NCBI GenBank assembly: GCA_934095845.1
Contig: CAKOKS010000004.1
Span: 3,626-67,625, forward strand
Source: an uncultured Bacilli bacterium
GTDB taxonomy: Bacteria > Bacillota_I > Bacilli_A > RF39 > UBA660
Length of the DNA: 64,000 bases
Reading direction: 5' to 3'
In this document: positions 22,361-59,031 of the stretch, one piece after another
Layout of the letters: each line of letters starts with the position of its first letter
Numbering within the stretch: position 1 is the first letter of the stretch
Position numbers and translations under genes: made by a program
Notes under the pieces: model-generated
What the model was told of the DNA's origin: nothing
Database searches by the model: none
What the model saw: the letters and a program-made list of their open reading frames with translations, nothing else

Positions 22361-23545
22361 ATGAAAAGGAGAAATCTGTTAATAATTGCAATTTTAATAA
22401 TGTGTATAGGATTTGCAGCAATAAGTACAACATTAGTAATAAATGGAAATACAAAAATTGGAGAAAATAAAGATGATTTTTCAGTAATATTTACTGCAGC
22501 TTCATTAGATGGAACGGATGTATACGCAAATGTAATTGATGATACAAAGAAAATAATTACATTTGAAATAAATGATTTAAAAACATTAAATCAAACAAGT
22601 GTGTTAACTTATGAAATAACAAATAATTCAGTAAACTATGATGCCGAAGTACAAGTAAATTGTAAGGTTAAAGATAATGGTTTAGCAAAATATACAAGCA
22701 TAAAAAATGAACTAGAAGCAAATACCAAAGTAGTAAAAGCAAAAGAAACATTAAATGGAACATTAATAGTAACACTTAACAAAACGGCAACCGAAGAAGT
22801 AAGAGAAGAGTATGTATGTGAATTAACATTTAATGCAGTAGAAAGAAATGAATTAGGACGAGAAATTCCTAATCCAGTATCATTTACAACTGATAGTTGG
22901 GAAACTATTCAAAAAGCTGTTCAAACTGGAAATTCTGGTGTATATAATGTAGGAGACACAAAAGAAGTGGACCTAGGTTCTTTTGGAACACATACCATAA
23001 GAATAGCAAATAAAAGTGAATGTACAACAGAAGCAAGTGAAACAGCATGTGGATTTGTAATAGAATTTGCTGACTGTATAAGTGAAACAATTATGAATTC
23101 TACAAATACTAATGTTGGTAGTTGGAAAGTATCTACAATGAGAACATATTTAAATAATACTATTTATTCATCCTTACCATCTGATTTACAAAACGTAATT
23201 GTTTCAACAAAAGTAATTACAGGACATGGAAGTGCAGAAACAACTAATTCTGAAACACAAGATAAATTATATTTATTATCTGCTAAAGAAGTTTGGGGAA
23301 CTGCTCAAGATGATACAGTAAATATAGAAACAAGACAACTTGATTATTATAAGAATCAAGGAGTAACGGCAACTAGCTATGCAGCAGCAATAAAAAAATA
23401 TAATGGATCAGCTATATTCTGGTTTTTGCGTTCTCCTTATTCTGGAAATGATTCAGCATTTATCCGTGTTGGTTCCTTAGGCAACTGGAGTGGTAGTGGA
23501 GCAGGTGGAAGTAACTATGTATCACCTGCATTTAGAATTGCATAA
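22361..23545 (+). CDS. Secreted protein: shared N-terminal leader/beta module plus DUF6273-like C-terminal domain
   Basis: MKRRNLLIIAILIMCIGFAAISTTLVINGNTKIGEN.. is the family N-terminus. The C-terminal part has ..DKLYLLSAKEV.., ..FWFLRSPYS.. and the terminal ..SPAFRIA. It is a paralogue of 57823..59031. Confidence 0.7.
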   Translation: MKRRNLLIIAILIMCIGFAAISTTLVINGNTKIGENKDDFSVIFTAASLDGTDVYANVIDDTKKIITFEINDLKTLNQTSVLTYEITNNSVNYDAEVQVNCKVKDNGLAKYTSIKNELEANTKVVKAKETLNGTLIVTLNKTATEEVREEYVCELTFNAVERNELGREIPNPVSFTTDSWETIQKAVQTGNSGVYNVGDTKEVDLGSFGTHTIRIANKSECTTEASETACGFVIEFADCISETIMNSTNTNVGSWKVSTMRTYLNNTIYSSLPSDLQNVIVSTKVITGHGSAETTNSETQDKLYLLSAKEVWGTAQDDTVNIETRQLDYYKNQGVTATSYAAAIKKYNGSAIFWFLRSPYSGNDSAFIRVGSLGNWSGSGAGGSNYVSPAFRIA

Positions 23546-23571
23546 AAAAACCACTTGTTAAGTGGCTAATT

Positions 23572-24672
23572 TTATCTTATAGGTTTATTTTGAAGTTCAA
23601 AATCAATAACCTTATCATTTGTTAACATTGTATAAATATATGCACATTTTAATTCATAATCTTTTATTATAGAATTTACAGAAGTAATCTTTGTTACTAT
23701 TGGAAGATTTACTTCTTTTTTTATACTATTTAAATATTCTTGACCAAGTTTATTTAAACCTAGAATACGTATATACTCATTTTTTGTTAAGGCGTTTTTA
23801 TCTTCTTTAGTGAGACCAATAAGAATATGTATAAGCATTCTTTTAATTCTATTATAAGTATATCTTTTAGATTTAGTTTTTTCTATTAATTCATCAATTG
23901 TTGTAACTTCATTTATTACTTTTTTAAGTCTATTATCTATACCTTCATCAACAGTTAAATACTTGCTTAAATCATGTTCAGTTATTATTTTATATTTAAG
24001 TAAATTAAATAATTTTTCTTCATCAATTGAATTTATTTTACCTTCAGGAATATATTTTTTTATATCAATATTTTCTTTTAATTTATTTCTTATATTAGAT
24101 GCCGATATAATAGCTTCATTACTAGATAAATCATGAAAGTCGTTTGTCCTTTTTATAGAAATAGGTTCTATATTATATTTATTTTTTAATATAGCTTTAA
24201 TATATGATAAAGCTAGGATATCATTAGGTGTGTCAATATTTGTATTAGTTACTTTATTTAAAGCTGTTGGGTAATTTATGCCTTTTTTTAGATAATCTTT
24301 TATTTTATAATCATTTTCTAATTGTTCTTGTGCTATTTTCCTTAAAGTATTTATATCATTAGATTCAGAACCAAAAACTATTTTTTCTACATGTAGTTCA
24401 TTTAAAAGTTCAATCGCGCTTGATGCAAATATATCTGCAGATGATGATGAAAAGAAGAAAGGATGTTCAATAACTAAATCAACTCCATACTTTAAGGCTA
24501 GTCTTGTTTTTTCTTCTTTAGATTCAATAGAAATATCACCACGTTCTAAAAAATATCCATTTAAAACTAAAATAATTATATAATTTGGATAAAGTTCTTT
24601 TATTTTATTTATATGATAAACATGGCCATTATGAAAAGGATTATATTCACATATTATTCCAATAGATTTCAT
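23572..24672 (-). CDS. tmcAL: tRNA(Met) cytidine acetate ligase (YlbM/UPF0348 nucleotidyltransferase)
   Basis: MKSIGIICEYNPFHNGHVYHI.. is the N-terminal HxGH nucleotidyltransferase signature of this family. Length ~366 aa. Confidence 0.75.
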   Translation of the reverse strand: MKSIGIICEYNPFHNGHVYHINKIKELYPNYIIILVLNGYFLERGDISIESKEEKTRLALKYGVDLVIEHPFFFSSSSADIFASSAIELLNELHVEKIVFGSESNDINTLRKIAQEQLENDYKIKDYLKKGINYPTALNKVTNTNIDTPNDILALSYIKAILKNKYNIEPISIKRTNDFHDLSSNEAIISASNIRNKLKENIDIKKYIPEGKINSIDEEKLFNLLKYKIITEHDLSKYLTVDEGIDNRLKKVINEVTTIDELIEKTKSKRYTYNRIKRMLIHILIGLTKEDKNALTKNEYIRILGLNKLGQEYLNSIKKEVNLPIVTKITSVNSIIKDYELKCAYIYTMLTNDKVIDFELQNKPIR

Positions 24673-24747
24673 GATTCACCTCTTTTTTTCTTTATTATAT
24701 TAACATAAGTTAAAAAAATATGCTATAATCTAAAGTAGGTGAGGCGT

Positions 24748-25176
24748 GTGAAAAAGAGAATTTATTTTATTCATTCTAGAAAGATAGATTATAATGACTT
24801 AATATATTTACCTGTTCTTAGAAGTGAAGCATTACATACTCATGAATTAATGTTACCTGAAAGTGAAAATTTAAAAAACGTTTATTATAAAGACTTAATA
24901 AATGATGCTGATTTAATTGTTGTTGAACTAAGTAATCCTGATATTGGATTTAACATGGAACTAAAACAAGCAATTCTTTCTAGAAAACCAATTTTAGCTC
25001 TTGCTAATAAAAAAATTGGCTTTGATATGAAATATCAAAAACTTCTTAAAAATGTTTATGGTTATGAAACAGAAAAAGAATTTAGAGAATATGTTGAAAA
25101 GTTTGTTTTAAAACATGAAAAAGATCCAAGAGCAGATGTTGGTACAATAGTTTTAGGCAATATAAAAGAGAACTAA
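24748..25176 (+). CDS. Nucleoside 2-deoxyribosyltransferase-like fold protein (tentative)
   Basis: GTG at 24748 follows GGTGAGG, with a TGcTATAAT promoter at 24721-24729. ..DADLIVVELSNPDIGFNMELKQAILSRKPILAL.. resembles the family core. Confidence 0.4.
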   Translation: MKKRIYFIHSRKIDYNDLIYLPVLRSEALHTHELMLPESENLKNVYYKDLINDADLIVVELSNPDIGFNMELKQAILSRKPILALANKKIGFDMKYQKLLKNVYGYETEKEFREYVEKFVLKHEKDPRADVGTIVLGNIKEN

Positions 25177-25478
25177 AGCTCTCTTATATCAAGAATAGAT
25201 GTTATATCTATTTTTTTATTGTCAATTGTTATTAAGTATTTTTGACTTCTTCCAATAATAGTTGTTTTAAATTCATCTTCTTTAGTTTTTATTAATACAT
25301 CTAATTTATAAACGTAGTTAGAAGAATTAAATAAGTCATTTATTTTCTTTTCAATCAAATATGGACTTTCAATTACTTGACTAGTTGAGTTTTCATGATT
25401 TTTTTCACTATAGAAGACATTTTGACTAATATTATTGGTTTTTATATTACTATTTTGAAATACTTTTGGTAAATTCAT
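25173..25478 (-). CDS. Hypothetical protein
   Basis: 101-aa ORF convergent with the previous gene. No confident family call. Confidence 0.45.
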   Translation of the reverse strand: MNLPKVFQNSNIKTNNISQNVFYSEKNHENSTSQVIESPYLIEKKINDLFNSSNYVYKLDVLIKTKEDEFKTTIIGRSQKYLITIDNKKIDITSILDIREL

Positions 25479-25534
25479 ATAACCACCTACAATATAATAT
25501 GTTTAATATTTTAATTTATGAGTAAAATAGTACT

Positions 25535-26569
25535 ATGAAAAATAATGGTTTAATAATAATATTAATAATAATTTTATCTATATTTAGTATGATTAATTTA
25601 TACAATTATGATTCTTTTCTAATGAAACAAATTATCTGGTATATAATTGGTTTTGTAATATATTTTATATTTAAAAAAATGAATAAAAAATATATATTTA
25701 GATTTTCTATATTGCTTTATATTATTCTTAATGCATTACTTTTATATTTACTTTTATTTGGTAAAGCTATAAATGGAACAAAAGCTTGGATAAATATATT
25801 TGGTAGTTCTTTTCAACCTAGTGAATTTATGAAAGTTATTCTTATTATAGTTTTAGGATATATTTCAACTAAAAAACATTACTTAATTAAATCAATTATT
25901 TTAACTCTAATACCATCAGTTTTAACTTATTTAGAACCAGAAACTGGTAATGTTATTTTTTATATAATGATTTTATTCTCAATTATATATTATAAAAATA
26001 CTAGTAATAAATTTTTTAAAAAACTTTTAGCTTTTATTATATTTATAGGAAGTATTATTTTTTCTTTAACATATTACTTTAGTGATTTATTTATATCTTT
26101 AGTTGGAAATAATATATTTTATAGAATAGATAGAATTGTAAGTTTATTTACAAATTCTAGCTATCAATTAAATCAAGCACTTATGTCAATTGGATCTGCT
26201 TATTATTTTGGTGGGTCATATGGGGCATTTATACCAGAGGCAATAACTGACTTTGCATTTGCTCTTTTAATTAGCAAAATAGGTTTTGTAGGAATAATTG
26301 TTTTTTTAATCGTTAATTATATGTTAGACTTAACTTTGATAAAAAAACATTCAAGCAATTTTGGAATAATGAAAACAATTACTTTTTCATTTGTAATACT
26401 TAAAATAGTACAAGAAAGTATACATATGCTTATGAATATTGGTTTATTTCCAATTACAGGAATTACTTTACCATTTATATCTTATGGTGGATCTAGTATT
26501 CTTTCTTATTTTTTTATTCTTGGTGTTATTAGTAATAGTAGTAAGGATTATAGTTTGGATATGGAATAG
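25535..26569 (+). CDS. SEDS-family peptidoglycan glycosyltransferase (FtsW/RodA/SpoVE)
   Basis: ~10 TMs and the ..PITGITLPFISYGGSS.. signature. Confidence 0.8.
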   Translation: MKNNGLIIILIIILSIFSMINLYNYDSFLMKQIIWYIIGFVIYFIFKKMNKKYIFRFSILLYIILNALLLYLLLFGKAINGTKAWINIFGSSFQPSEFMKVILIIVLGYISTKKHYLIKSIILTLIPSVLTYLEPETGNVIFYIMILFSIIYYKNTSNKFFKKLLAFIIFIGSIIFSLTYYFSDLFISLVGNNIFYRIDRIVSLFTNSSYQLNQALMSIGSAYYFGGSYGAFIPEAITDFAFALLISKIGFVGIIVFLIVNYMLDLTLIKKHSSNFGIMKTITFSFVILKIVQESIHMLMNIGLFPITGITLPFISYGGSSILSYFFILGVISNSSKDYSLDME

Positions 26570-26717: not shown

Positions 26718-26757
26718 ATAAAAAACTCCTTTCTATAAGTAGTTTATGAAAGGAGTT

Positions 26758-36525: not shown

Positions 36526-37931
36526 TGACGAAGAATAAAATAATATTTATTTTAGTCGTTTTTTCTATATTTATAAGTGTTGCATATGCAGCTGAGGTGA
36601 TAAAAGCAAAAGAAATTTCTTTTAGTAATGGAATGTCTGGACTAAAAGCAAATAATGTTCAAGATGCAATAGAAGAATTGTATGACAAAACAATATCTGA
36701 CTCATCATGTAAAAATGTAAGTGCACCAAAACTAAAAGAAGGACTAATTCCAGTAACAATAGAAAATGATGGAACAGTAAAATATGAAGATACTTCTGAA
36801 AATTGGTATAACTATTGTGATAAACGTTGGGCGAATGCAGTAATACTAGAAGATGGTGCAAATTATAAAGTAGGAGATACAATAAGTGAATCTGATATTC
36901 AATCATATTTTGTATGGATACCAAAATATAAATATAAATTATGGAATACCGGAACAGCAAGTGAAGGCGTACATGAAATTGATATCATATTTGATGAAAC
37001 AGATACAGAAGATGTAGAAGGAATATCATGTAAAACTCCAATGATAAGTGGAGAGTCTGGAAATTGTAACAATGGAGAATACATGACACATCCAGCATTT
37101 ATAAGTATGAATACAAATGGATTTTGGGTAGGAAAGTATGAAACAGGATATAAAGGAGCAACAAGTGTCGCAACTGCCCAAGTTAATGGAAGTGATTCAA
37201 GTAAGATAATAGTAAAGCCAAATGTATATAGTTGGAGAAATATAACTGTGTATAATGCGTTTTTAGCATCATATAATTATGATCGTGACTTAGATTCACA
37301 TATGATGAAAAATACCGAATGGGGTGCTGTTGCATATTTATCACATTCTAGATATGGAAAAGAATATGAAATAAATATCAATAATAATTCAAGTTATAAA
37401 ACTGGGTACTCTGCACTGCCTTCGATAAGCCAACAAACGTATCCTGGAACAAGTGGAGATGGAGCAACATACAATTCAGCATACAATACAGATATTGGAT
37501 ATCTAGCAAGTACAAGTGGAAATATAAGTGGTGTTTATGATATGAGTGGTGGAGCATGGGAATACATGTCTTCATATATAACAGGAAAACCTGAATCAAG
37601 TGGATTTACGACAACAACTTTAGCAAATTATAGTAGTAAGTATTTTGATACGTATAATGCATCAACGACAGTTAGTGCTTATCAATATAGAATACTTGGA
37701 GATGCAACTGGAGAAATGGGACCATTTAAACAATATTTAGACGGAGATAATGGATCAAGATTGCATTCCAGTTGGTATGGCGACAGTTCAAGCTTTGTGG
37801 ACTCTTCTATTACTTGGCTTGTTCGAGGTGGGCATTACACTCATGGCGTGCTGTCTGGAATTTTTTCTTTCACTAGGTATACTGGAGGTACTGATACTGG
37901 CGGTGGCTTCCGAATAGTTCTAACTCCATAG
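36525..37931 (+). CDS. Secreted FGE-sulfatase/C-type-lectin-fold protein, paralogue 3
   Basis: Same architecture as paralogue 1, ending ..LVRGGHYTHGVLSG..GGGFRIVLTP. ATGA overlap with the preceding gene. Confidence 0.65.
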   Translation: MTKNKIIFILVVFSIFISVAYAAEVIKAKEISFSNGMSGLKANNVQDAIEELYDKTISDSSCKNVSAPKLKEGLIPVTIENDGTVKYEDTSENWYNYCDKRWANAVILEDGANYKVGDTISESDIQSYFVWIPKYKYKLWNTGTASEGVHEIDIIFDETDTEDVEGISCKTPMISGESGNCNNGEYMTHPAFISMNTNGFWVGKYETGYKGATSVATAQVNGSDSSKIIVKPNVYSWRNITVYNAFLASYNYDRDLDSHMMKNTEWGAVAYLSHSRYGKEYEININNNSSYKTGYSALPSISQQTYPGTSGDGATYNSAYNTDIGYLASTSGNISGVYDMSGGAWEYMSSYITGKPESSGFTTTTLANYSSKYFDTYNASTTVSAYQYRILGDATGEMGPFKQYLDGDNGSRLHSSWYGDSSSFVDSSITWLVRGGHYTHGVLSGIFSFTRYTGGTDTGGGFRIVLTP

Positions 37932-37944
37932 AAAGGATAAACTT

Positions 37945-39351
37945 ATGAAAAATAAATTGTTAATTACGAGTTTAGTTATAAGTACATTATTTTTTGCAGT
38001 TGCCTATGCAGCAGAACTTATAAATGGTAAAGACGTTAGTTTCAGTAATGGTACTTCTGGATTAAAAGCAAATAACGTACAAGATGCAATAACAGAACTT
38101 TATAATAAAAACATAAGTGAAACATCATGCAAAAATGTAAGTGCACCAAAATTAGGGAGTGGGCTTGTTCCAGTAACAATAGAAAATGATGGAACAGTAA
38201 AATATGCAGATACATCAAAGAGTTGGTATAACTATTGTGATAAAATATGGGCGAATGCAGTTATTCTTGAAGATAATACAAGTTATAAAGTAGGAGATAC
38301 GATACAAGAAAGTGACATTCAAAGTTACTTTGTATGGATTCCAAAATATAAATATAAATTGTGGAATGTAGATACACCAAGTAAAGGAATACATGAAATA
38401 GAAATTGTATTTGATGAAAATGATACAAATGATATAGAAGGAGTTTCTTGTAAGACACCAATGGTAAGTGGAGAAAGTGGAAACTGTAATAATGGCGAAT
38501 ATATGACACATCCAGCATTTATAAGTATGAATACAAATGGATTTTGGGTAGGTAAGTATGAAACAGGATATAAAGGAGCAACTAGCACTACAGCAGCTCA
38601 AGTAAATGCAAATGATACTAATAAAATAATAATAAAACCGAATGTATATAGTTGGAGAAATATAACTGTGTATAATGCATTTTTAAATTCATATAACTAT
38701 AAACGTAATTTAGATTCACACATGATGAAAAGTACTGAATGGGGAGCGGCTGTATACTTATCTCATTCTAAGTATGGAAAAGACTATGAATTGAGTAAAA
38801 ATAATAACTCGGCTAGTATTACAGGATATTCAGCATTACCATCAACAAACCAACAAACATATCCAGCTACTTCAGGTAATGGAGATACTTATAATAAACC
38901 ATATAATACAGAAACAGGGTATTTAGCAAGCACGACAGGAAATATAAATGGGATATATGATATGTCAGGTGGTGCATGGGAGTATGTTGCCTCATATATG
39001 AGTGGCAAATTAGGATCAAGTGGGTTTACAACAACGACTATTGCAGATTATGATAGTAAATATTTTGATACATATAATGCATCATCAACTCAAACTACTT
39101 ACCAATATAGAATACTTGGAGATGCAACCGGAGAAATAGGACCATTCAAAAGTTATTTGGATGGAGATAATCAAGCTAGATATCATACAAGTTGGTATGG
39201 TGGACTTTCAATTTTTATTGATTCTTCATGGTCTTGGTTTAGACGAGGTGGAAATAATGGTGATGGAGTTCTTGCAAGTTCATTCTATTTTTGTGGAAAT
39301 TATGGAAGTGCAAGCAATTCAGGTGGTTTCCGTATAGTATTAGCTCCTTAA
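37945..39351 (+). CDS. Secreted FGE-sulfatase/C-type-lectin-fold protein, paralogue 4
   Basis: Same architecture as paralogue 1, ending ..FRRGGNNGDGVLAS..SGGFRIVLAP. Confidence 0.65.
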   Translation: MKNKLLITSLVISTLFFAVAYAAELINGKDVSFSNGTSGLKANNVQDAITELYNKNISETSCKNVSAPKLGSGLVPVTIENDGTVKYADTSKSWYNYCDKIWANAVILEDNTSYKVGDTIQESDIQSYFVWIPKYKYKLWNVDTPSKGIHEIEIVFDENDTNDIEGVSCKTPMVSGESGNCNNGEYMTHPAFISMNTNGFWVGKYETGYKGATSTTAAQVNANDTNKIIIKPNVYSWRNITVYNAFLNSYNYKRNLDSHMMKSTEWGAAVYLSHSKYGKDYELSKNNNSASITGYSALPSTNQQTYPATSGNGDTYNKPYNTETGYLASTTGNINGIYDMSGGAWEYVASYMSGKLGSSGFTTTTIADYDSKYFDTYNASSTQTTYQYRILGDATGEIGPFKSYLDGDNQARYHTSWYGGLSIFIDSSWSWFRRGGNNGDGVLASSFYFCGNYGSASNSGGFRIVLAP

Positions 39352-41740: not shown

Positions 41741-42166
41741 ATGAAAAATAGAGTATTATTTATGATTGCTTTAATTATGACAATAGTTGGTTTTATTGGT
41801 GTATCTAGTATTTTAGTAAGTGAAGCATTAAGTGAAAATACAAGTAATCTTATTTATTTTAAAGAACTTATTTTAGATGGAAAAGATATATATAATGGTA
41901 ATTATTTACTTGCTAGTAATATAGTTTCAATAAAATCAAATGAAATAGGAGAAAATACTAGACTTGATTTTAAAATAAAAAATAATAGTAAAAATAATTC
42001 TAATATAACTATTGAATGTTTAAGTGATAAAGGTATTATTGGAGTAATGACTAAAAATACTAGTTATTATATTGAAGGTAATTCTATAATAGAAGGTAAT
42101 TTAATTTTAAACTTTGATAGTGATGAACAAGATACTTTAGAATGCAAGATCAGTTTACTTGATTAA
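41741..42166 (+). CDS. Small divergent member of the shared N-terminal-module family
   Basis: ..IALIMTIVGFIGVSSILVSEALSENTSNLIYF.. aligns with the family leader/EN motif. The protein consists of the module only, with no cargo. Confidence 0.55.
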   Translation: MKNRVLFMIALIMTIVGFIGVSSILVSEALSENTSNLIYFKELILDGKDIYNGNYLLASNIVSIKSNEIGENTRLDFKIKNNSKNNSNITIECLSDKGIIGVMTKNTSYYIEGNSIIEGNLILNFDSDEQDTLECKISLLD

Positions 42167-42250: not shown

Positions 42251-44500
42251 ATGAAAAAGAACTATTTTATATTATTAATATTATTAATAATGGTAGTTGG
42301 ATATGCAGCAACTCAAATGAAAATAGATATAAAAGGAAATACAACATTAAGTGAAAATACAAGTGATTTTAATGTATATTTAGCAAATCTAAAATTAAAT
42401 GGAACAGAAATAGAAGGAATAAATGAAACAAAAGATGGATATGAAATAAATGTACCATCAAAAGGGACACTAGAATATGATGTAATAAATGATTCAACAG
42501 AATATGATGTAGAAGCAACAGTAGAATGTGAAGAAGAAACAGGGGCCAATGAAGTTACAAATTTTGATTATACAGGAGGAGAACAAACATTTGTAGCTCC
42601 AGTAACAGGAGTATATAAACTTGAAACTTGGGGAGCTCAAGGGGGAAGTTCAACGATTGCTCAGGGAGGATATGGATCTTATTCAGTTGGAAATGTGTTA
42701 TTAAACAAAGATGATAAATTATATATTAATATAGGTGGTGCAGGTTTATATAGAAAAGTAAATCAAAGCCCTTATACAATTACTGGAGGCTATAATGGTG
42801 GAGGAACTGCATATGATAGTTCTGAAAAGGAAAATAGATCAAGTGGAGGTGGAGCAACACATATAGCAACCATATCTGGTCAATTATCTTCATTATCTTC
42901 ATCTGTTGGAAAAATTATGATTGTTTCTGGAGGTGGCGGTGGCTCTACGGGAAGCGCTGGAGGAGCAGCTGGTGGAATAAAAGGAGTAATGGGAGCTCCT
43001 ATCTCTGGGTATACCATTGGAACTGGAGGAACTCAAACATCAGGTGGAGTTTGCTCAAATTCAAATAAATATTCATGTACATCAAGTTTAAATGGTTCAT
43101 TTGGAAAGGGTGGAAACTCAATAAGATCAAGTGATAATACAACATATGGTGGTTCCGGTGGAGGTGGTGGCTTCTATGGTGGAGCAGCAGGATATGACAA
43201 CGGAGCAGGTTCTGGAGGCTCAGGCTATATAGGTAATTCTTCTTTAACTGAAAAAACAATGTATTGTTATAATTGCCAAGAATCAAAAGACGAATCTACT
43301 AAAACTATTTCAACGACATGTGTAAATTCAACTCCAACCGAAAATTGTGCTAAGTCCGGTAATGGGTATGCACGTATTACTCAAATAAGTCCAATAGTTT
43401 CTAGTATTCAATTAAAAACAACAACAATTGAAGCTCAAGATAAAGTAAATAAAAGTGTTGAAGTTTCTAATAATGGAATGAAGTGTAGTTTAAAAATAAA
43501 AAAAATATCAAGGGCAGAAAAGAAAGAAAAGTATAGTGGTCCAACAGAATGGACATTTGATTACACTGGTGAAGAACAAACATTTACTGTTCCGGTATCT
43601 GGAACTTATAAATTAGAAACTTGGGGAGCACAGGGAGGAATTAATAGTACTTTAAGCAACAATTCATTATCAAAATTTTCCTATGGTGGATATGCTTCTG
43701 GAATAATAAATTTAAAAAAAGACACTGACTTTTTTATATTTATAGGACAAGCAGGAAATAATTTACGAACAAATATTTTTAATGGTGGAGGAATTGGTGG
43801 CTTAAGTGATCAAAATTCTTTTGGACAATCTGGTGGAGGTGCTACAGATATAAGAATAGATAATAATGAGTGGAATAATTTTTCTTCACTAAAATCTAGA
43901 ATAATGGTTGCTGCTGGAGGCGGCGGTAGTGCAGATGGTGTTTATACAAATGGTGGTCAAGGAAGTTATGCTGGTGGATTAAGTGGATACAATGGAGGAT
44001 ATTATCCAGGCCATAATTATGTAAATCAAGATGGAAAGGGTGCAACGCAAAAAAGTGGTGGAGCTGCTGGTGCAAATATTTTTGGTGCTACTGGTACTGT
44101 TAATAAAGGTGCTTTCGGGTATGGTGGAAGTAGTTATAGTACATCATCAGGAATAGGAAGTGGCGGAGGTGGCTCGGGTTACTATGGCGGAGGAGCTGGA
44201 GGCGGAACTTTAAGTGGTGGAAATGGCCAAGGCGGCGGAGGCGGTTCATCATTTATAAGTGGTCATAATGGCTGTGATGCCATAAGTGAAGAATCAACAG
44301 CAACTAATATAATCCACACTGGTCAATCTGTTCACTATTCTGGATATAAATTTACGGACACGATAATGATAGATGGAACAGGTTGCAAATGGACGAATGA
44401 AAAAACTACGGTATGTGATGGAATGCCATCACACGATGGGACATCTACAATACAAGGAAACACCGGTAATGGTTATGCACGCATAACTTTAATAAAATAA
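42251..44500 (+). CDS. Family N-terminal module fused to two tandem glycine-rich domains
   Basis: ..VVGYAATQMKIDIKGNTTLSENTSDFNVY.. leader/module. Two domains follow, each starting FDYTG(G/E)EQTF..P(V)(T/S)G.YKLETWGAQGG, containing multiple GGGG(S/x)G runs and ending GNGYARIT(Q/L)I. Confidence 0.7.
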   Translation: MKKNYFILLILLIMVVGYAATQMKIDIKGNTTLSENTSDFNVYLANLKLNGTEIEGINETKDGYEINVPSKGTLEYDVINDSTEYDVEATVECEEETGANEVTNFDYTGGEQTFVAPVTGVYKLETWGAQGGSSTIAQGGYGSYSVGNVLLNKDDKLYINIGGAGLYRKVNQSPYTITGGYNGGGTAYDSSEKENRSSGGGATHIATISGQLSSLSSSVGKIMIVSGGGGGSTGSAGGAAGGIKGVMGAPISGYTIGTGGTQTSGGVCSNSNKYSCTSSLNGSFGKGGNSIRSSDNTTYGGSGGGGGFYGGAAGYDNGAGSGGSGYIGNSSLTEKTMYCYNCQESKDESTKTISTTCVNSTPTENCAKSGNGYARITQISPIVSSIQLKTTTIEAQDKVNKSVEVSNNGMKCSLKIKKISRAEKKEKYSGPTEWTFDYTGEEQTFTVPVSGTYKLETWGAQGGINSTLSNNSLSKFSYGGYASGIINLKKDTDFFIFIGQAGNNLRTNIFNGGGIGGLSDQNSFGQSGGGATDIRIDNNEWNNFSSLKSRIMVAAGGGGSADGVYTNGGQGSYAGGLSGYNGGYYPGHNYVNQDGKGATQKSGGAAGANIFGATGTVNKGAFGYGGSSYSTSSGIGSGGGGSGYYGGGAGGGTLSGGNGQGGGGGSSFISGHNGCDAISEESTATNIIHTGQSVHYSGYKFTDTIMIDGTGCKWTNEKTTVCDGMPSHDGTSTIQGNTGNGYARITLIK

Positions 44501-48875: not shown

Positions 48876-50426
48876 ATGAAAAGAAAATCGATTATAGCAG
48901 TTACTATACTATTATTAGCAATAGGATTTGCGGCTATATCGACAACATTGATAATAAACGGAAGTGCAAAAATAGGAGAAAATACAGAAGATTTTTCTGT
49001 TATTTTCACTAAAGCAACATTAGATGGAACAGATGTATATGCAAATGTAATAAGTCAAGATAAAAAAACAATAACGTTTGAAACAAATGATTTAAAAACA
49101 TTAAATCAAACATCGGTACTGAATTATGAAGTAACAAATAATTCAGCAAACTATGATGCAGAAGTGCAAGTAAATTGTAAAACAAAAGAAAATACAACAG
49201 CAAAATATACAAGTATAAAAAATGAACTTGAAAATAATGCAACAGTTATAAAAGCAAAAGAGAAACTAAATGGAACATTAACCGTAACATTAAACAAGGT
49301 AGCTACAGAAGAAGTAAGAGAAGAGTATGTATGTACACTTACACTTAATGCAGTAGAAAGAGATACTATTGGTGTAGAGCCAACTTTATACGACTTAATA
49401 AAATCTAAAGCGGATACAACAACAGTGATAGATTATAAAGTACGTTCAGGAGTAAGTGGAACAAACGGGATATATACAACAACTGCAACTGATGGAAATG
49501 TACCAGTATATTACTATAGAGGAGATGCCGATAAAGTAAATAATAATATAATATTTAATAATATGTGTTGGAAGATAATAAGAACAACTGAAAACAATGG
49601 AGTAAAAATAATATATAACGGAACACCTGCAGATGGAAAGTGTGAAACTCAAACTGGTGATAACACTCAAATTGGGAAAAGTCAATTTAATGGAGAAGGT
49701 GGATATGATAATGCATATGTAGGATATATGTATGGAACAGCAGGAAGTAGTAACTATGCATCAACACATGCAAATACAAATGAATCAACAATAAAAAAAT
49801 ATATAGACAATTGGTATAGTCAAAATTTTGACGGAACGACAACGTCAAAATTAGAAGACACAGTTTTTTGCAATGATAGAAGTACAAAAGCCTATGATGC
49901 AAATACGATTGTATCTACTGGCTTTTCATACTATGGAGCATTAGGATATGGAAAAAATGCAACGTTTTATGGAGCAGCACATAGAGCATCATACAACTCA
50001 ACTAATCCAAATCCAAGTTTAGCTTGCCTAAATGAAAATGATAAATTTACGGTAGAAAGTAAAAATGGAAATGGAAAACTTACTTATCCAGTTGGATTAA
50101 TAACATTAGATGAAGCTGTGCTTGCAGGGTTTAATACATATTATTCCAATGAAAATGATTATAAAGATTACACAAATTACTTATATACAAATAGTGTTTA
50201 TTGGACATTCTCCCCTCTGTCGATGGATACTGATAGTAAAGGAAATGCTGGTATTTATGGTGGTGCTAAAGTTGGTTTTGTCAATATTGGTAGTTATTAT
50301 AGTGGTAGTTATGTGGACTATGGCATTGTGCATTATTCCTATGGTGTCCGTCCTGTAGTTTCACTAGCAAGTAGAACAATTGTAACTGGTGAAGGAACTT
50401 CTGCAAATCCATATGTAGTAGAATAA
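48876..50426 (+). CDS. Family N-terminal module fused to a large C-terminal domain ending ..YWTFSP..YGVRPVVSL..
   Basis: The N-terminal ~165 aa are nearly identical to 22361.. and 57823... The C-terminal ~350 aa are unique (..NNMCWKIIRTTENNGVKIIYNG.., ..YWTFSPLSMD.., ..YSYGVRPVVSLA..). Confidence 0.7.
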   Translation: MKRKSIIAVTILLLAIGFAAISTTLIINGSAKIGENTEDFSVIFTKATLDGTDVYANVISQDKKTITFETNDLKTLNQTSVLNYEVTNNSANYDAEVQVNCKTKENTTAKYTSIKNELENNATVIKAKEKLNGTLTVTLNKVATEEVREEYVCTLTLNAVERDTIGVEPTLYDLIKSKADTTTVIDYKVRSGVSGTNGIYTTTATDGNVPVYYYRGDADKVNNNIIFNNMCWKIIRTTENNGVKIIYNGTPADGKCETQTGDNTQIGKSQFNGEGGYDNAYVGYMYGTAGSSNYASTHANTNESTIKKYIDNWYSQNFDGTTTSKLEDTVFCNDRSTKAYDANTIVSTGFSYYGALGYGKNATFYGAAHRASYNSTNPNPSLACLNENDKFTVESKNGNGKLTYPVGLITLDEAVLAGFNTYYSNENDYKDYTNYLYTNSVYWTFSPLSMDTDSKGNAGIYGGAKVGFVNIGSYYSGSYVDYGIVHYSYGVRPVVSLASRTIVTGEGTSANPYVVE

Positions 50427-51875: not shown

Positions 51876-51876
51876 G

Positions 51877-53853: not shown

Positions 53854-54315
53854 ATGAATAATACTGAAACTTGCTGTGGAAATAATAATAGTATTGCTGA
53901 TATCTTAAAAGTAATCCTTATCTTACAACAAAATGCATGTCCTGAGTCTTGCTTAGATTCATGTGATAGACCTATGTTAGGTGGAGGACCAAATTGTTTG
54001 ATATGTAATACTAGACCAGTAATGTTATATACTTGCTGTGGAAATGGTACTCCTTGGAGTATGCCAGTAAGCAAAGATTTAACAACTGTATGTGGAAATC
54101 CTCAAGTAAATAATTGTAGTTATGAATGTTCTAATGTATTTAGAGTAGAAAAACTAGATGGAAACACTGCAACATTTAGAGTGTTAATACAAAATCCAGA
54201 GGAAACTTGCTGTAATTCTCAACCTTATATCGCGACAAATAGTTTCTTCACAATGGATTTATCTTGCTGCTGCGTTATTCGTTGTTTAAATGATACTTAT
54301 GTAGACTGCGTATAA
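53854..54315 (+). CDS. CotY/CotZ/ExsY-family Cys-rich spore coat/crust protein
   Basis: 153 aa with ~20 Cys. ..SIADILKVILILQQNAC.., ..VFRVEKLDGNTATFRVL.. and ..FFTMDLSCCCVIRCLNDT.. parallel the CotZ/CotY pattern. Confidence 0.65.
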   Translation: MNNTETCCGNNNSIADILKVILILQQNACPESCLDSCDRPMLGGGPNCLICNTRPVMLYTCCGNGTPWSMPVSKDLTTVCGNPQVNNCSYECSNVFRVEKLDGNTATFRVLIQNPEETCCNSQPYIATNSFFTMDLSCCCVIRCLNDTYVDCV

Positions 54316-54362
54316 CGCAGTTTTATTTTGTTTAAGGCTAGATTTAGTTCTAGTCCTTTTAG

Positions 54363-54391: not shown

Positions 54392-54416
54392 AATACGCAC
54401 TTTTAAGGGGTGCACT

Positions 54417-55256
54417 ATGGCAAAGAAAAAAAGAAAAAATAGGGTTAATAGTAAAGAAAATATTAAAAGAGCTAAAGTAATAAAATCTTATAAAGCAAAT
54501 TTGAGTTTATTAGAATGTAGAATAAATGAACAAGAAAAAGTAGCCAAAAAGGCAAAAAATATCAAGAATTTGCGTATTACTAAATATGCTTTAAAAAAAT
54601 CATTATCATATATTCTTATATCTGGTTTAATAATTGCAGGATCAAAGAGAATTGGTTTAGGTTATCCATTTTATCGTGATCAAAAAGCAAAAGAAGCGAA
54701 TTATAGTTTAGAAAGAGATATTGATGGTTTAATTTTAGCAGATAAAATTTATGAATATTATACAATTTTTTCTAAACCAACTTCTAAAATAATAGTTTAT
54801 TCTCCATGGAAAGAATTATCTAATGGTAAATGTGAAAGAGAAAAAACAACTTATAAATTAGAAGCAAATAAAGAAATATATGACGCTTTCTTTAAAGAAG
54901 ATTATGCATTTATATTTGATAACTTAAAAGAAGTAGATAAAGAAACAGAAGTTTCTCATGATGAAAATACTGAGTATAAATTTCTTATTGAAGCTAGTAT
55001 AAATTTTAATGATAAAGAAGATCGTATTTATTGTTTAGAAAGTCTTCAAGATAATGTTTGCTGTAGTATAACAATTTTGATGTTGCTTGTATATATAAAT
55101 GCTTTTAAAGCTTATATGGATTTAAAAACATATGAAGAAACTATAAATGAATATAAGGAAGAATATGAAAAAGAAATTGAAAAATTAGAAGAATTAAAAA
55201 ATAAACATACTGAAGCTAAAAAGCATTTGGAATTTATTAAGATGAATGGGTGTTAA
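54417..55256 (+). CDS. Membrane protein: Lys-rich coiled coil, TM, ~150-aa ectodomain, TM, coiled coil
   Basis: TM1 is ..LSYILISGLIIAGS.. and TM2 is ..CCSITILMLLVYINAF... The C-terminal heptad-like region is ..EEYEKEIEKLEELKNKHTEAKK... Confidence 0.55.
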   Translation: MAKKKRKNRVNSKENIKRAKVIKSYKANLSLLECRINEQEKVAKKAKNIKNLRITKYALKKSLSYILISGLIIAGSKRIGLGYPFYRDQKAKEANYSLERDIDGLILADKIYEYYTIFSKPTSKIIVYSPWKELSNGKCEREKTTYKLEANKEIYDAFFKEDYAFIFDNLKEVDKETEVSHDENTEYKFLIEASINFNDKEDRIYCLESLQDNVCCSITILMLLVYINAFKAYMDLKTYEETINEYKEEYEKEIEKLEELKNKHTEAKKHLEFIKMNGC

Positions 55257-55258
55257 TT

Positions 55259-56077
55259 ATGAGAAAGAATGTCGTTGATCAATATATAAGAGATACTAAA
55301 AGTTTAGAATATAAAGTAAAATATCCTGATCTTTTTAATGCCTATTATAAAATATTAGAAATATCTACTAAATTTGGTATTATCAGTGCCCCTAATATTA
55401 TTTCTCTTTTTGTTGTATCTTGGATAGTTTCATCAATTATGGGTTCATTTAATCATTCACCATTTGAGTTAGATGAAAAAGAAGTGTTTGCTAATTCAAA
55501 AACAACTTATTATGGAATTGAAAAAAGTATTGATACCATATCCTTTGATAAAAGTTTTACTAATTCATTAGAATATACTACAGGATGGAAAGAAATAGGT
55601 AATGGTTTTTATGAAAGAACTATTACATATTATAATATTCCTGCTGAAGGAGAAATAAATAATAAAGAAGAGATATTATCTTTATCTAAAGAAGCAATGG
55701 ATGAACTTTTTGAAACTAATAACATTGAGACAGTTTCAAAAAATTATTTAACTGATGAAGATAATAGATTTAATGAAGAAACAGTTGTTTTAGAAATCAA
55801 TAATGGTAAAAGTGAAAAAGATGTAAAAATTGAAAAACAGTCTATTTCAGAACAAATATTTTTAGATGGTCTTGTTCATTTTCTTATTTCTTTCATTGGT
55901 GGTAATTTAATGGGAAATTTTATAAAAGAGAAAATTTTAAAAAGAAAAATGGTAATAAAAAGTAGAAAATATATAGATAAAAATGACTTAGAAGAAATGA
56001 AAAAAGTAATTGAGTTTAGAAAACAAAATATAGAATTGCTAGAAGATAATAAAAGATTAAAGAAGGTGTTGAAATAA
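55259..56077 (+). CDS. Membrane protein with the same TM-ectodomain-TM-coiled-coil architecture
   Basis: TM1 is ..IISLFVVSWIVSSIMG.. and TM2 is ..LVHFLISFIGGNLMGNFI.., with a C-terminal coiled coil. It overlaps the upstream gene's stop. Confidence 0.55.
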   Translation: MRKNVVDQYIRDTKSLEYKVKYPDLFNAYYKILEISTKFGIISAPNIISLFVVSWIVSSIMGSFNHSPFELDEKEVFANSKTTYYGIEKSIDTISFDKSFTNSLEYTTGWKEIGNGFYERTITYYNIPAEGEINNKEEILSLSKEAMDELFETNNIETVSKNYLTDEDNRFNEETVVLEINNGKSEKDVKIEKQSISEQIFLDGLVHFLISFIGGNLMGNFIKEKILKRKMVIKSRKYIDKNDLEEMKKVIEFRKQNIELLEDNKRLKKVLK

Positions 56078-57075
56078 TGGAACTTTTTAAAAGTGATGGT
56101 AATGATTCATTTTCAACATTAAATCGTACAGATTTAAGAGAATTGCTAATTTATTTAAGTAAATATTTTATAACATATCGTGAAACACTTGAATTACCTG
56201 ATTATATTACATTTGGAACTGAAATTGAATTTGAGCAAGGTAGCAGTGATACTTTATATAAGATAAGTAAATTCATGAATCGAAATTACAAATCGTGGGA
56301 AGTTAAAAGTGATGATTCTTTAGAAGATGGTGGAGATGAATTAGCGTCACCAATTTTAATTGATGAAAAAACTGTTTGGACTGATCTTAAAACTATATGT
56401 GACTATCTTAAGAGTGAAGGTTGTAAAGCAGATAAATATGCTGGAGCACATATTCATTATGGAGCAATGATTTTAGGAAATGATTATACTAAATGGAAAG
56501 ATTTTATAAAATTGTATGTTCCTTATGAACATATATTATATAGATTTGCTTATGGAGAAATGACTTCATTTAGAAGAGAGGGATATCATTATGCATATCC
56601 AACAATTGATCTTTTAAAAGAACTTTATAAAAAAAATAAAAAACTATGTTTTAGTGAATTTATTAAGTTATTTAAATCTTATAATAAGTATAATGGCGTG
56701 AATTTGGTAATTAGAGAAGATGGAAAAAATCCAATTGGTCAAAAAGATACAATAGAATTTAGAAATCCAAATGGAACAATAAATTCCATTGTTTGGCAAA
56801 ATAATATAAATGCTTATGGTAAGCTTTTAAAAGCAATTAGAGAAGAAACTTTAGATATAAAATTTTTAAATTATAAATTTGAACATTCAATTAAACCATA
56901 TAAAGAAATTAAATTTTTATATAATGAAATAGATTTAAAAAATGTACTTGAATTTGTTGATTTAATATTTGATAATAATTTAGATAAATTAAATTTTTTA
57001 AGACAATATCTTGGAAATTTTAAAGGAGGCTATGAAGATGAAGAACATGTTTATAAAAAATGTTTTACAAAATAG
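56077..57075 (+). CDS. Glutamine-synthetase-like amidoligase (Amidoligase_2 family)
   Basis: The motif series ..FGTEIEFE.., ..GDELASP.., ..AGAHIHYG.. and ..TIEFRNPNGT.. matches the putative-amidoligase family pattern. Confidence 0.6.
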   Translation: MELFKSDGNDSFSTLNRTDLRELLIYLSKYFITYRETLELPDYITFGTEIEFEQGSSDTLYKISKFMNRNYKSWEVKSDDSLEDGGDELASPILIDEKTVWTDLKTICDYLKSEGCKADKYAGAHIHYGAMILGNDYTKWKDFIKLYVPYEHILYRFAYGEMTSFRREGYHYAYPTIDLLKELYKKNKKLCFSEFIKLFKSYNKYNGVNLVIREDGKNPIGQKDTIEFRNPNGTINSIVWQNNINAYGKLLKAIREETLDIKFLNYKFEHSIKPYKEIKFLYNEIDLKNVLEFVDLIFDNNLDKLNFLRQYLGNFKGGYEDEEHVYKKCFTK

Positions 57076-57550
57076 AAAATTTTATTATTTAGCATATGGA
57101 AGTAATTTGAATTTATATAATCTTTCAAATATGAGTCAAGGAGCAAGAGTTGTAGGCACTTCTAAGCTGAATGGATATCGTTTAGTATTTAAAGGTGGTG
57201 CAGATAAATATGCTTATTTAACTATTGAAAAATGTCCAGAATCAAGTGTACCTTTAGGTATATTTTCTATACCAATGGAAGATATGGAAGCATTAGATAA
57301 ATATGAAGGTTATCCTGAATTATATGATAGGGTTACAATGCCAGTTATAATTGACGGTAAAAAAGAAGAAGCATATATTTATATAATGAAATCAGAATTT
57401 GGTTATCATTTACCTTCAAAAAGTTATATCACTATATGTGAAGAAGGATATGAAGACTTTGGCTTTGACTATAAATTTCTGGATCAAGCTTTAGAAACAA
57501 CTAAAGATAATATATCATCAAGTTTAACAAAAAGATTAACAATAGATTAA
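57032..57550 (+). CDS. Gamma-glutamylcyclotransferase / AIG2-like protein
   Basis: ATG at 57032 follows AAGGAGG. ..YYLAYGSNLN.., ..GYRLVF.., ..ALDKYEGYPELYDR.. and ..AYIYIM.. are GGCT/AIG2 hallmarks. It overlaps the amidoligase 3' end by 44 nt. Confidence 0.7.
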   Translation: MKMKNMFIKNVLQNRKFYYLAYGSNLNLYNLSNMSQGARVVGTSKLNGYRLVFKGGADKYAYLTIEKCPESSVPLGIFSIPMEDMEALDKYEGYPELYDRVTMPVIIDGKKEEAYIYIMKSEFGYHLPSKSYITICEEGYEDFGFDYKFLDQALETTKDNISSSLTKRLTID

Positions 57551-57572
57551 CGTGTTAAAAACACGTTTTTTT
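57551..57572 (+). terminator. Rho-independent terminator (duplicate of 21879-21900)
   Basis: cgtgtt-aaaa-acacg followed by TTTTTTT. Confidence 0.7.
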
Positions 57573-57626
57573 GTTTGTATTAAATTATTAGGTTCTAATT
57601 TTGTTGACAGTAGATAAAAGTAAAAT

Positions 57627-57709
57627 AAAAAAGCACCTTTTCTTTTAAAAAAGGTGCAAACTAGCATTTGTGGTAAGCATCGCGTCCTAAAGAAACTTTG
57701 CTTCTCACT
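57627..57709 (-). ncRNA. Candidate antisense/sRNA (copy 2, no partner small ORF)
   Basis: The minus strand carries TTTACA-17 nt-(TGt)TATATT at 57744-57716. The 5' half is homologous to copy 1. It has its own hairpin gcacctttt/aaaaggtgc (57657-57633) plus U6. Confidence 0.4.
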
Positions 57710-57822
57710 AAATAAAATATAACATAATACATATAAAATGTAAACCTTTACACATAATAGAAATATTAAATAAAATCTACAATTAATATATTGTATAATA
57801 ATGCTAGAATGGTGTGTGTAAA

Positions 57823-59031
57823 ATGAAAAAGAGAGGAATTGTTTTTGCTATATTATTATTAGCAGTAGGATTTGCTGCCGTATCGACAACGTTGATAATA
57901 ACTGGAACAACAAAAATAAGTGAAAATGCTGATGATTTTAGTGCTATCTTCACAAAAGCAACATTAGATGGAATAGATGTGTATGCAAGTGTAATAGATG
58001 ATACAAAGAAAATCATTACATTTGAAACAAGTGATTTAACAACATTAAATCAAACTTCAGTATTAAATTATGAAATAACAAATAATTCGGCAAACTATGA
58101 TGCGGTAGTACAAGTTATGTGTAAAGTAAAAGATGATGCTGAAGCTAAATACACAAGTATCAAAAATGAACTTGAAGGAAATGCAACGAAAGTATTAGCC
58201 AAAGAAGTATTAAATGGAACATTAACAATAACCTTAAATAAAACAGCAACAGAAGAAGTAAAAGAAGAATATGTATGTGAGTTAACATTTAATGCAGTAG
58301 AAAGAAATGAATTAGGTAAAAATATTTCTGATCCAGTATCATTCACAACTGATAATTGGAAAACAATACAAAAAGCAGTTCAAACAGGAAACACAAATTT
58401 ATACAATGTAGGAGATATAAAAGAAGTGGATTTGGGAGATTTAGGAACACACACAGTAAGAATATCAAATATGAGTGCATGTACAACAGAAACAAGTGAA
58501 ACAGCATGTGGATTTGTGGTGGAGTTTTCGGATATAATTACAAAACAATCATTTAATAGCACTGCAACAAATGTAGGAGGATGGAGAGATTCAGAATTAC
58601 GTACATATATAAACAATATTGTATATAATTCATTACCAAGTGACTTACAAAATGTAATAGTTACAACAAAAGTAATATCAGGACATGGAAGTACAAGTGG
58701 AGAAACCAACTTTGAAACACAAGATAAATTATATTTATTGAGTGCTCATGAAGTGTATGAAAATGGAATAAACAGTAATATAACAACAAGCATAAGAGAT
58801 ACTGCATATCATCAAACTAAGCAATTAGACTATTATAAAACTTTAAATGTAAATGATGACAGTTATTCTAATGCTATTAAAGAAAATAATGGCAATAGTA
58901 GTTATTGGTGGCTACGTTCAGCTTATTCTATATTTAATAATTCTTTTGTAAGTGTCCGTTCGGATGGTAATTGGATAAACGAAGTTGCGAATGCTTCTTA
59001 TGGTATCTCACCTGCTTTCCGAATCGCATAA
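57823..59031 (+). CDS. Secreted protein: shared N-terminal module plus DUF6273-like C-terminal domain (paralogue of 22361..23545)
   Basis: MKKRGIVFAILLLAVGFAAVSTTLIITGTTKISEN.., ..DKLYLLSAHEV.., ..YWWLRSAYS.. and the terminal ..SPAFRIA. Confidence 0.7.
   Translation: MKKRGIVFAILLLAVGFAAVSTTLIITGTTKISENADDFSAIFTKATLDGIDVYASVIDDTKKIITFETSDLTTLNQTSVLNYEITNNSANYDAVVQVMCKVKDDAEAKYTSIKNELEGNATKVLAKEVLNGTLTITLNKTATEEVKEEYVCELTFNAVERNELGKNISDPVSFTTDNWKTIQKAVQTGNTNLYNVGDIKEVDLGDLGTHTVRISNMSACTTETSETACGFVVEFSDIITKQSFNSTATNVGGWRDSELRTYINNIVYNSLPSDLQNVIVTTKVISGHGSTSGETNFETQDKLYLLSAHEVYENGINSNITTSIRDTAYHQTKQLDYYKTLNVNDDSYSNAIKENNGNSSYWWLRSAYSIFNNSFVSVRSDGNWINEVANASYGISPAFRIA

Follow-up and report, generated by a model that had tools for sequence, protein, structure and literature searches.

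The donor-strand fibres of Firmicutes are encoded by sipW-tasA/bsaA operons (PMC9674648, PMC11580942), as in the TasA/TapA-SipW system of Bacillus subtilis and the BsaA/BsaB/BsaC-SipW system of Clostridium perfringens (PMC9674648, PMC10151520, PMC11580942). Tafi and related archaeal donor-strand pili have a conserved core that consists of a signal peptidase, a DUF5305 protein and subunits of 150-200 aa (PMC11821415, PMC12337348). In Tafi these are the peptidase TafD, the DUF5305 protein TafG, a type of protein proposed to assist the signal peptidase, and the pilins TafA/TafE; Tafi loci also encode variable accessory subunits, some of which are adhesin-like, and the versions from non-halophiles use Sec signals (PMC11821415, PMC12337348). 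Here we describe a family of six genes in a 64,000-nucleotide stretch of DNA from an uncultured Bacilli bacterium (contig CAKOKS010000004.1 of assembly GCA_934095845.1, positions 3,626 to 67,625; hereafter the window), which encode a common N-terminal module joined to different C-terminal domains. Our best explanation, which we hold with about as much belief as doubt, is that the six genes encode a modular pilin-like assembly module of the TasA/BsaA/Tafi kind, which bears adhesins, undergoes SipW-type maturation and is not a type IV pilin.

Using a hidden Markov model (HMM) of the module built from 46 diverse sequences, we found that a six-frame translation of the window contains exactly six open reading frames (ORFs) that match at E<=1e-3, all of them on the forward strand (Table 1). 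These are the same six genes to which a sequence-only reading of the window had attributed one conserved N-terminal leader and beta-rich module. The first ~165 residues can be aligned across the six proteins, and from the sequences we conclude that the resemblance is due to homology and not to chance. Four parts make up the module: a basic leader, a run of 11-12 aliphatic residues, a conserved stretch of ~20 residues, and an immunoglobulin (Ig)-like beta-sandwich with two conserved Cys. In an N-terminal logo of 145 representatives, these parts begin with M-K-K-K, followed by the 11-12 aliphatic residues, [IV]-G-F-A-[AS]-[VI]-[ST]-T-T-L-x-[IL]-N-G, and then ..N-x-[DE]-D-F-x-V-x-F. The leader G lies at position 16-18, and G, F and A are present in 145, 140 and 143 of the 145 sequences, respectively. 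At the other end, the profile match stops at position 158/159 in nearly all of 150 listed representatives, where the junction ..NA.ER gives way to unrelated cargo, which bears out the proposal that C-terminal domains are interchangeable at a fixed junction.

The cargo in the window was largely as the sequence-only reading had described it. Pfam confirmed DUF6273 in two members and two ALK_LTK_GRD glycine-rich stretches in 42251 (E 2.1e-81; members are named by their start positions); the third predicted domain, the ~350-aa cargo of 48876, matched no Pfam family, and 8 related loci have it C-terminal to the module, at 60-73% identity. Two other descriptions were correct in part. Of the two short members said to lack cargo, 41741 does end with the module, but 35923 carries a short additional tail of 35 aa. 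The modules of 22361, 48876 and 57823, which had been called nearly identical, are close, but their pairwise identity is 75-79% for protein and 79-81% for DNA.

An exhaustive HMMER search of 1.84 billion representatives with the module profile returned 1,334 representative clusters at E<=1e-3, of which 716 remained at 1e-10. The module starts at or near residue 1 in 150 listed matches, with protein lengths from 116 to 2,446 aa, and the family occurs mostly in metagenome-assembled genomes (MAGs) of low-GC gut Bacilli. A genome of roughly 1 Mb holds at least 15 copies, and the related MAG CAKOKD01 has about 17 module ORFs over four contigs. In another MAG, CAAFAN01, contigs (L041-L044) stop 27-51 codons into a family gene; with contigs ending inside it, the repeated module breaks up assemblies from short reads, and the copy numbers in MAGs are underestimates. 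Further metagenomic loci were found with a degenerate DNA pattern for GFA..TTL..NG, and the alignments contained no conserved stretch of 7-10 columns. A Companilactobacillus match (L045) was discarded as a lipase with nothing but the signal peptide in common, and a phage origin was dropped after tblastn against phage genomes gave no match. Pfam, NCBIfam and PDB profile searches produced no match to a well-characterised family, and the family is unannotated in curated databases; as a large family of uncultured low-GC Bacilli that are frequent in the guts of humans and animals, it merits a family model.

The cargo domains among 92 representatives comprised ALK_LTK_GRD (19), Flg_new (18), DUF285 (14), CarboxypepD_reg (7) and DUF6273 (5), along with leucine-rich repeat (LRR) types, Laminin_G_3, F5/8-C and Lcl_C. 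Such cargo is adhesin- or lectin-like, with binding or structural roles, and does not consist of toxins. The earlier description of a polymorphic family with a delivery module plus cargo is thus upheld for its architecture and fails for any toxin-like content. An LPXTG-type tail is absent from all 196 family proteins checked, and the members in the window likewise end without one.

We examined the module by structure prediction. A full-length AlphaFold model based on a 46-sequence alignment (predicted local distance difference test score, pLDDT, 90) consists of a helix at residues 2-28, a lower-confidence linker and an 8-strand sandwich at residues 42-161. C101 and C153 are nearly invariant, and one of the two Cys lies in a Y-x-C context. 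The two sheets of the model, the conserved Cys pair, and weak Ig_3, I-set and CD47 matches identify the domain as an Ig-like beta-sandwich. When the six proteins, and 46 diverse modules at E<=1, were scanned against Pfam and NCBIfam, the module drew nothing but noise and weak Ig matches, and a PDB sequence-profile search gave CD47-type Ig matches alone (E>0.1). Foldseek searches of PDB and BFVD with two good models returned, in the top 50, generic Ig-like sandwiches at template modelling (TM) scores of 0.3-0.4, along with envelope proteins of white spot syndrome virus (WSSV), and no pilin, TasA or Tafi structure. Of the pilin-, TasA- and Ig-like folds considered in the sequence-only reading, the generic Ig-like sandwich was therefore recovered, and pilins and TasA were not matched.

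The distribution of conservation along the module does not follow the fold. The ~20-residue stretch after the leader is the best-conserved part of the module yet is modelled as disordered. The first 10 mature residues average 3.27 bits per column, compared with 2.14 for the sandwich, which makes them the most conserved block of the mature module, and the logo shows an alternating V/T/L/I pattern in the first mature residues. In a mature-only AlphaFold model, the first ~17 residues are coil (pLDDT 63-74). An N-terminal segment that is conserved yet modelled as coil is what would be expected of a segment that binds in trans.

Evidence for a dedicated processing enzyme came from relatives of the window. 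Genes were called in 155 loci, and the 227 immediate neighbours of 194 family genes were clustered. Unrelated housekeeping genes make up most of these neighbours. The largest cluster, with 11 members, comprises a ~380-aa protein that is always encoded downstream of the family gene, on the same strand and ~25 bp from it. The C-terminal third of this protein, which follows a polytopic membrane domain of ~250 aa, is an archaeal/SipW-type signal peptidase I: it matches TIGR02228 (sigpep_I_arch) at 66-77 bits (cut-off 51.85) and Pfam Peptidase_S26, and it contains the motifs SM, [IL]VHR[IV] and GDxNxxxD. With tblastn, the fusion was found in 12 loci, which form 6 groups with 31-78% mutual identity, and it adjoins a family gene in every case. 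The gene before it is usually a family gene whose product of 186-206 aa consists of the module alone (HMM E 1e-29 to 3e-34), and in the loci that were read through the gene after it encodes a DUF5305 protein (E 3e-13 to 4e-17). The Tafi-type core of a subunit, a peptidase with multiple transmembrane helices and a DUF5305 protein is thus present in the relatives L098, L070, L157, L111, L170 and L058, though not in the window. Cargo-bearing members also occur in the peptidase cluster, two in L058 and one in L124. Sample ERZ1673743 contains both a contig with an infB 96% identical to that of the window and a contig with the peptidase operon; its six family contigs, one of which has the operon, are at 9.8-10.7x coverage. 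This co-occurrence supports, short of proof for this genome, the presence of the operon in the window's genus. The sequence-only reading had expected a new targeting mechanism, but a known kind is more likely, given that a SipW/archaeal-type peptidase with DUF5305 is the commonest conserved neighbour of family genes in relatives.

Taken together, these data best support Sec export and dedicated SipW-type processing, probably followed by donor-strand-type assembly or docking with swappable adhesive cargo. The preprotein would enter Sec by means of its short basic n-region and its aliphatic h-region of 11-12 residues. The dedicated SipW/archaeal-type peptidase, membrane-fused and paired with DUF5305, would then cut after the A of [IV]-G-F-A and before [AS], a predicted site that makes the leader motif a concrete candidate substrate motif for such a peptidase; the gene association itself is seen in relatives. 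Cleavage would expose [AS]-V-S-T-T-L-x-I-N-G, which could serve as a donor strand that enters the Ig-like sandwich of a neighbouring subunit. Module-only subunits of the peptidase operon would polymerise into a shaft, and the dispersed paralogues, presumed substrates of the same peptidase, would rely on the same module to insert their various lectin-like, glycine-rich, LRR or repeat domains into the structure or attach them to it. Exchange of cargo at the ..NA.ER junction, with at least 15 paralogues per genome, would yield a variable adhesin repertoire.

Several observations weigh against this explanation. Neither sequence nor structure comparisons detected homology to TasA, camelysin, AbpA, TafE or DUF1102; in particular, DUF1102/TafE similarity is absent among the 25 families listed when 46 modules were scanned at E<=1, and the module sequences match neither TIGR04088, the NCBIfam model of the SipW-cognate signal, nor Peptidase_M73. 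The peptidase/DUF5305 operon is absent from the window itself, where tblastn gave no match and the scanned ORFs include no S26 peptidase, and 143 of the 155 family loci have no adjoining peptidase; none was found in the contexts of P0057, P0170, P0219 and P0256 either. Furthermore, the modelled sandwich looks complete, with 8 strands and no evident missing-strand groove, and AlphaFold extends the membrane helix through residues 20-28, which an uncleaved signal anchor would fit equally well.

Comparison with the described systems shows both shared and distinct features. As with TasA/BsaA, the family has a dedicated SipW-type (Ser-His) peptidase beside a small secreted beta-sandwich subunit (here in relatives), several paralogous subunits with one special leader, and an N-terminal extension that is unstructured in the monomer. 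At its presumed cleavage site the family also has Ala at -1 and, before it at -2, an aromatic residue, as does the TasA/CalY site (..T[WF]A before the cut). Another likeness to the BsaA system is a larger accessory protein with an adhesive domain, which in BsaC is a vWA domain. In contrast to TasA and BsaA, to which it has no detectable homology, the family subunit is an Ig-like sandwich of ~120 residues with a conserved Cys pair; its peptidase is fused to the ~250-aa polytopic membrane domain and paired with DUF5305, and its module is joined to dozens of cargo domains in at least 15 dispersed copies per genome. The same three-gene core is found in Tafi (PMC11821415, PMC12337348). However, Tafi is archaeal, whereas the family belongs to low-GC Bacilli, and the peptidase domain is N-terminal in TafD and C-terminal to the membrane domain here. 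A large dispersed set of cargo-bearing paralogues is a feature of the family that has not been described for Tafi.

The combination of a filament module with a grafted functional or adhesive domain, as we propose here, is also that of modular type IV pilins, for example Streptococcus sanguinis PilB and PilC. Both these and the 'pilin-like' proteins encoded by the Tad-like cluster of the gut clade TANB77 (PMC11680825) follow the same concept and have the same topology of a short N-terminus, one helix and an outside domain. Some members of our family also adjoin a locus for a Tad-like ATPase and platform. Unlike modular type IV pilins, the family lacks a class III signal and a pilin fold and is mostly unlinked to the Tad-like locus. 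In the variable surface families of Mollicutes (Vsa, Vlp, Mpl), found in small, low-GC, host-associated genomes, numerous paralogues keep the 5' end or leader but vary in their C-termini. The likeness of our family to them suggests surface variation; the family differs in that it has no lipobox and has a folded Ig-like domain, its cargo consists of different folded domains and not of repeat-length variants, and no inversion or phase-variation switch has been demonstrated for it.

The main rival is that the six genes encode ordinary Sec-dependent, monomeric surface or secreted adhesins, whose leader is normal or remains uncleaved and whose Ig-like domain is a stalk or spacer, with the SipW-type peptidase serving its own operon partner alone or processing the family without forming fibres. 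We regard this as possible but doubtful. It accounts well for the hydrophobic run from the leader through ..STTLII (~22 residues, modelled as the single helix 2-28), for the completeness of the sandwich, and for the scatter of most members among housekeeping genes with no partner gene. The GFA/A site (a slash marks the cut) also resembles the VAYA/AE site of the 468-aa secreted paralogues next to the family in the window, and surface proteins of Gram-positives and Mollicutes typically carry such cargo. However, monomeric adhesins leave unexplained why the ~10 residues after GFA are the best conserved of the mature protein, yet unstructured in the model, and why an operon of peptidase, DUF5305 and module-only genes is kept in six divergent lineages. 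A membrane-anchored stalk of ~4 nm would, furthermore, be expected to bury small cargo under the cell wall, which we assume to be present because the organism has RodA, MurJ-like and sortase genes.

We also considered the suggestion of the sequence-only reading that the family comprises clients or components of the Tad-like machine (28313-32974). These could be atypical pilins or pseudopilins, which the machine would pull out of the membrane or drive through the wall. Three congeneric species have family genes in the slot bounded by the TadC-like gene and fmt, with differing cargo: the window, L024 (two members) and L054 (a DUF6273 member). The modelled topology is pilin-like in outline, with a short basic N-terminus, one helix and an outside beta domain, and there is precedent in C. 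perfringens, in which secretion of BsaC and BsaA, products of a SipW operon, depends on type IV pilus genes (PMC11580942), and in TANB77, in which a Tad-like cluster is followed by 'pilin-like' proteins made of a transmembrane helix plus a domain (PMC11680825). However, the three species are close relatives, so the synteny may be inherited, and more distant genomes with the same locus (TadC-like protein ~67% identical) have other downstream genes and no family gene within 10 kb. Across 120 metagenomic family loci (885 kb in total), Tad genes are found in 2, which is roughly the chance expectation. The family leader does not resemble a class III signal: in the 145-sequence logo, the hydrophobic stretch is preceded by K/R/S/N and has no acidic helix residue and no E5, and the invariant G-F lies 11-12 residues into the stretch, at mid-helix. 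A regex scan of window ORFs likewise gave no prepilin motif, as the sequence-only reading had noted of the N-terminus. Pilin and TadE models of Pfam and NCBIfam have no match even at E<=1, the fold matches include no pilin, and the modelled helix leads to a flexible linker and an independent sandwich, with no sign of the packing of helix on sheet found in pilins. The locus itself has no identifiable Flp pilin, prepilin peptidase or T2SSF-domain match. The functional link between the family and the Tad machine is thus weak, resting on position in one slot of one genus, and we consider it unlikely that the family belongs to that machine. That the family consists of polymorphic toxins or effectors, with a conserved delivery N-terminus, swappable toxic C-termini and cognate immunity genes, is very improbable: the conserved module, sharp junction, unrelated C-termini, many metagenomic alleles and a weak HigB_toxin match in 1 of 92 representatives would suit such a family, but the cargo (GRD, Flg_new, DUF285, LRR, DUF6273, Laminin_G, F5/8-C) includes no nucleases, deaminases or pore-formers, the downstream genes are diverse housekeeping genes with no recurrent small immunity-like gene, and none of the loci read encodes machinery of a type VI secretion system (T6SS), type VII secretion system (T7SS) or contact-dependent inhibition (CDI).

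If the module is an assembly unit of the TasA/BsaA/Tafi kind, it would explain how bacteria with reduced genomes display changeable lectin-like domains without sortase signals, and it would add modular adhesins to the SipW/DUF5305 donor-strand class of archaeal filaments and TasA-type matrix proteins. We tentatively extend this idea to an undescribed donor-strand fibre of gut Bacilli, with an Ig-like pilin module, a membrane-fused SipW-type peptidase, DUF5305, and at least 15 paralogues that each carry a different lectin or adhesin domain; this plug-and-play pilus, itself a rather doubtful proposition, may in this genus also need the Tad-like machine to cross the wall.

Table 1. Features of the window discussed in the text (positions within the 64,000-nucleotide stretch; a slash in a motif marks the cleavage point).
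Feature	Position	Strand	Description	Module HMM E
Member 1	22361..23545	+	394 aa; module residues 1-~164; DUF6273 lectin-like cargo, residues 246-393 (about 23096-23539), E=1.8e-22	1e-63
Member 2	35923..36525	+	200 aa; module, then 35-aa tail with motif ..NVQDCLDKL..	1.9e-64
Member 3	41741..42166	+	141 aa; module-only, divergent; ..VGFIGVSSILV.., without ING turn	5.3e-26
Member 4	42251..44500	+	749 aa; split module; second glycine-rich domain at residues 450-748	1.7e-19
Member 4, module part 1	42251-42574		residues 1-108 (HMM 1-114)	
Member 4, module part 2	43343-43537		residues 365-429 (HMM 100-165)	
Member 5	48876..50426	+	516 aa; leader at residues 1-19 (48876-48932)	5.8e-65
Member 5, conserved N-terminal extension	48933-48998		residues 20-41 (AlphaFold models)	
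Member 5, Ig-like sandwich	48999-49358		residues 42-161 (AlphaFold models)	
Member 5, cargo	49371-50423		~350 aa; no Pfam match	
Member 6	57823..59031	+	402 aa; module, then DUF6273 cargo, residues 235-401, E=2.7e-23	2.9e-60
CPBP/Rce1-like intramembrane protease	27603..28211	-	divergently adjoins Tad-like locus	
Tad-like locus	28313..32974	+	two CpaB/RcpC-like genes, TadA/VirB11-superfamily ATPase, two polytopic membrane proteins	
Four tandem ~468-aa paralogues	33075..39351	+	starts 33075, 34494, 36525, 37945; ordinary signal peptide ..VAYA/AE..	

The members differ in how they depart from the common plan. Member 3 (41741) is only 19-26% identical to the other members and reads GFIG where they have GFAA. 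In member 4 (42251), the match to the module HMM splits in two, which places the first ALK_LTK glycine-rich domain inside the Ig-like module, between the two conserved Cys; this domain-in-domain insertion suggests that the insertion loop of the module tolerates large grafts. Orthologues of member 2 (35923), likewise 200 aa in length, are conserved (P0127, P0271, P0291).

Member 6 (57823) is a segmental duplicate of member 1 (22361) that includes ~190 nt of leader DNA, over which the two upstream regions are 82-88% identical. The sequence-only reading had claimed a promoter signature shared by the family, but only these two genes share the duplicated leader, and the upstream regions of the other members are at 61-65% identity, the AT-rich background. 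The duplicated upstream DNA (21877-22352 and 57549-57822) consists of a common terminator hairpin, about 60 nt more and the ~190-nt leader, which holds an imperfect hairpin (GTGGTAAGCA..TGCTTCTCAC). Only the copy at 22361 contains an additional insert of ~215 nt, which has a perfect TTGACA-16-TATAAT (21950-21977), an inverted hairpin copy (21985-12) and an ORF for 25 hydrophobic aa (22078-22155). An invertible promoter upstream of 22361 was considered and rejected, as the inverted repeats are two copies of the hairpin element. Rfam and tRNA scans of the window gave no match, including in the upstream hairpin region of 22361 and 57823.

The window has ~25% G+C. Every close relative, whether by DNA or by protein, is a MAG from human gut with the label uncultured Bacilli, among them those of the Hadza set and HGM10793, and the contig itself comes from a gut metagenome in ENA. 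Genes around the family encode housekeeping functions (RNase J, DnaB/DnaI-like, tyrS, ABC transporters, RodA, fmt, pgsA, rimP-nusA-infB-rbfA, truB). Downstream of the Tad-like locus, member 2 lies among the four tandem ~468-aa paralogues, which share 73-80% mutual identity, the motif ..NVQDAIEELY.. and a weakly FGE-sulfatase-like C-terminus. The 35-aa tail of member 2 resembles their N-terminus (BLASTP E=5e-5) and finishes with the same motif. Their C-terminal domain of ~420 aa is fused behind the module in L036, L032, L015, L138 and L142; since this domain is found both after an ordinary signal peptide and after the module, cargo moves between the two. What links the 468-aa paralogues to the family is the cargo and not the module. 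When the 48876 cargo, DUF6273 and the domain of the 468-aa proteins were compared profile against profile, no significant similarity emerged from these shallow alignments (E 0.06-0.23), and a lectin fold common to all three would be a guess.

Within the Tad-like locus, whose synteny is kept in L024, L054, L049-L051 and GCA_016648615, the two polytopic proteins (31293-32974) are TadB/TadC-like by position and match no T2SSF domain, Pfam or NCBIfam model; they are nevertheless very strongly conserved, with 96-97% identity to those of L024 against 89% for the ATPase. More than 7,379 relatives were found for the 261-aa TadC-like protein, the best 120 of which share 66-93% identity with it and come from MAGs of Bacilli and Mollicutes. 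In the more distant relatives, namely in L049 (2687-7011) and its equivalents in L050 and L051, the first CpaB-like gene is swapped for three genes, which encode a secreted protein of 242 aa, a secreted protein of 1,060-1,230 aa and a DUF5411 protein with an N-terminal helix. The CPBP/Rce1-like protease lies divergently beside the locus in every genome read (the window and the relatives just named). Because no prepilin peptidase or Flp gene is nearby (regex scans of all ORFs and domain scans of the window found neither a Flp/pilin-like gene nor a prepilin peptidase), this protease is a candidate processor and might act on a substrate of the Tad-like system.

Other neighbours were noted in the window. 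A class B sortase (TIGR03064, 176 bits) with an N-terminal extension of ~350 aa is encoded at 60237-61913 on the reverse strand and adjoins a gene for a 583-aa protein with no family match (61950-63701, forward strand). A CotZ-like (spore coat protein Z) protein of 153 aa (53854-54315) and a 114-aa protein with a weak T4SS_pilin match (7367-7711; E=2e-5, below the cut-off) are each encoded amid housekeeping genes. In six related loci, a protein of 366 aa whose N-terminus is prepilin-like (..KKNG/FIATSILYSIFLVFL..) is encoded just downstream of family genes (L077, 12415-13512 on the reverse strand; L103, L065, L062, L019, L073), and the window lacks a homologue of it. Another recurrent gene, which immediately precedes very large family members, encodes a ~200-aa protein with one N-terminal helix (..EKYAYPTKV.KL.F..) and no Pfam or NCBIfam match, found in L153 (4685-5296), L024 (7734-8321), L039 (197-781), L162, L108 and L069, including a MAG labelled Clostridia. 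This protein could be a partner or a chaperone.

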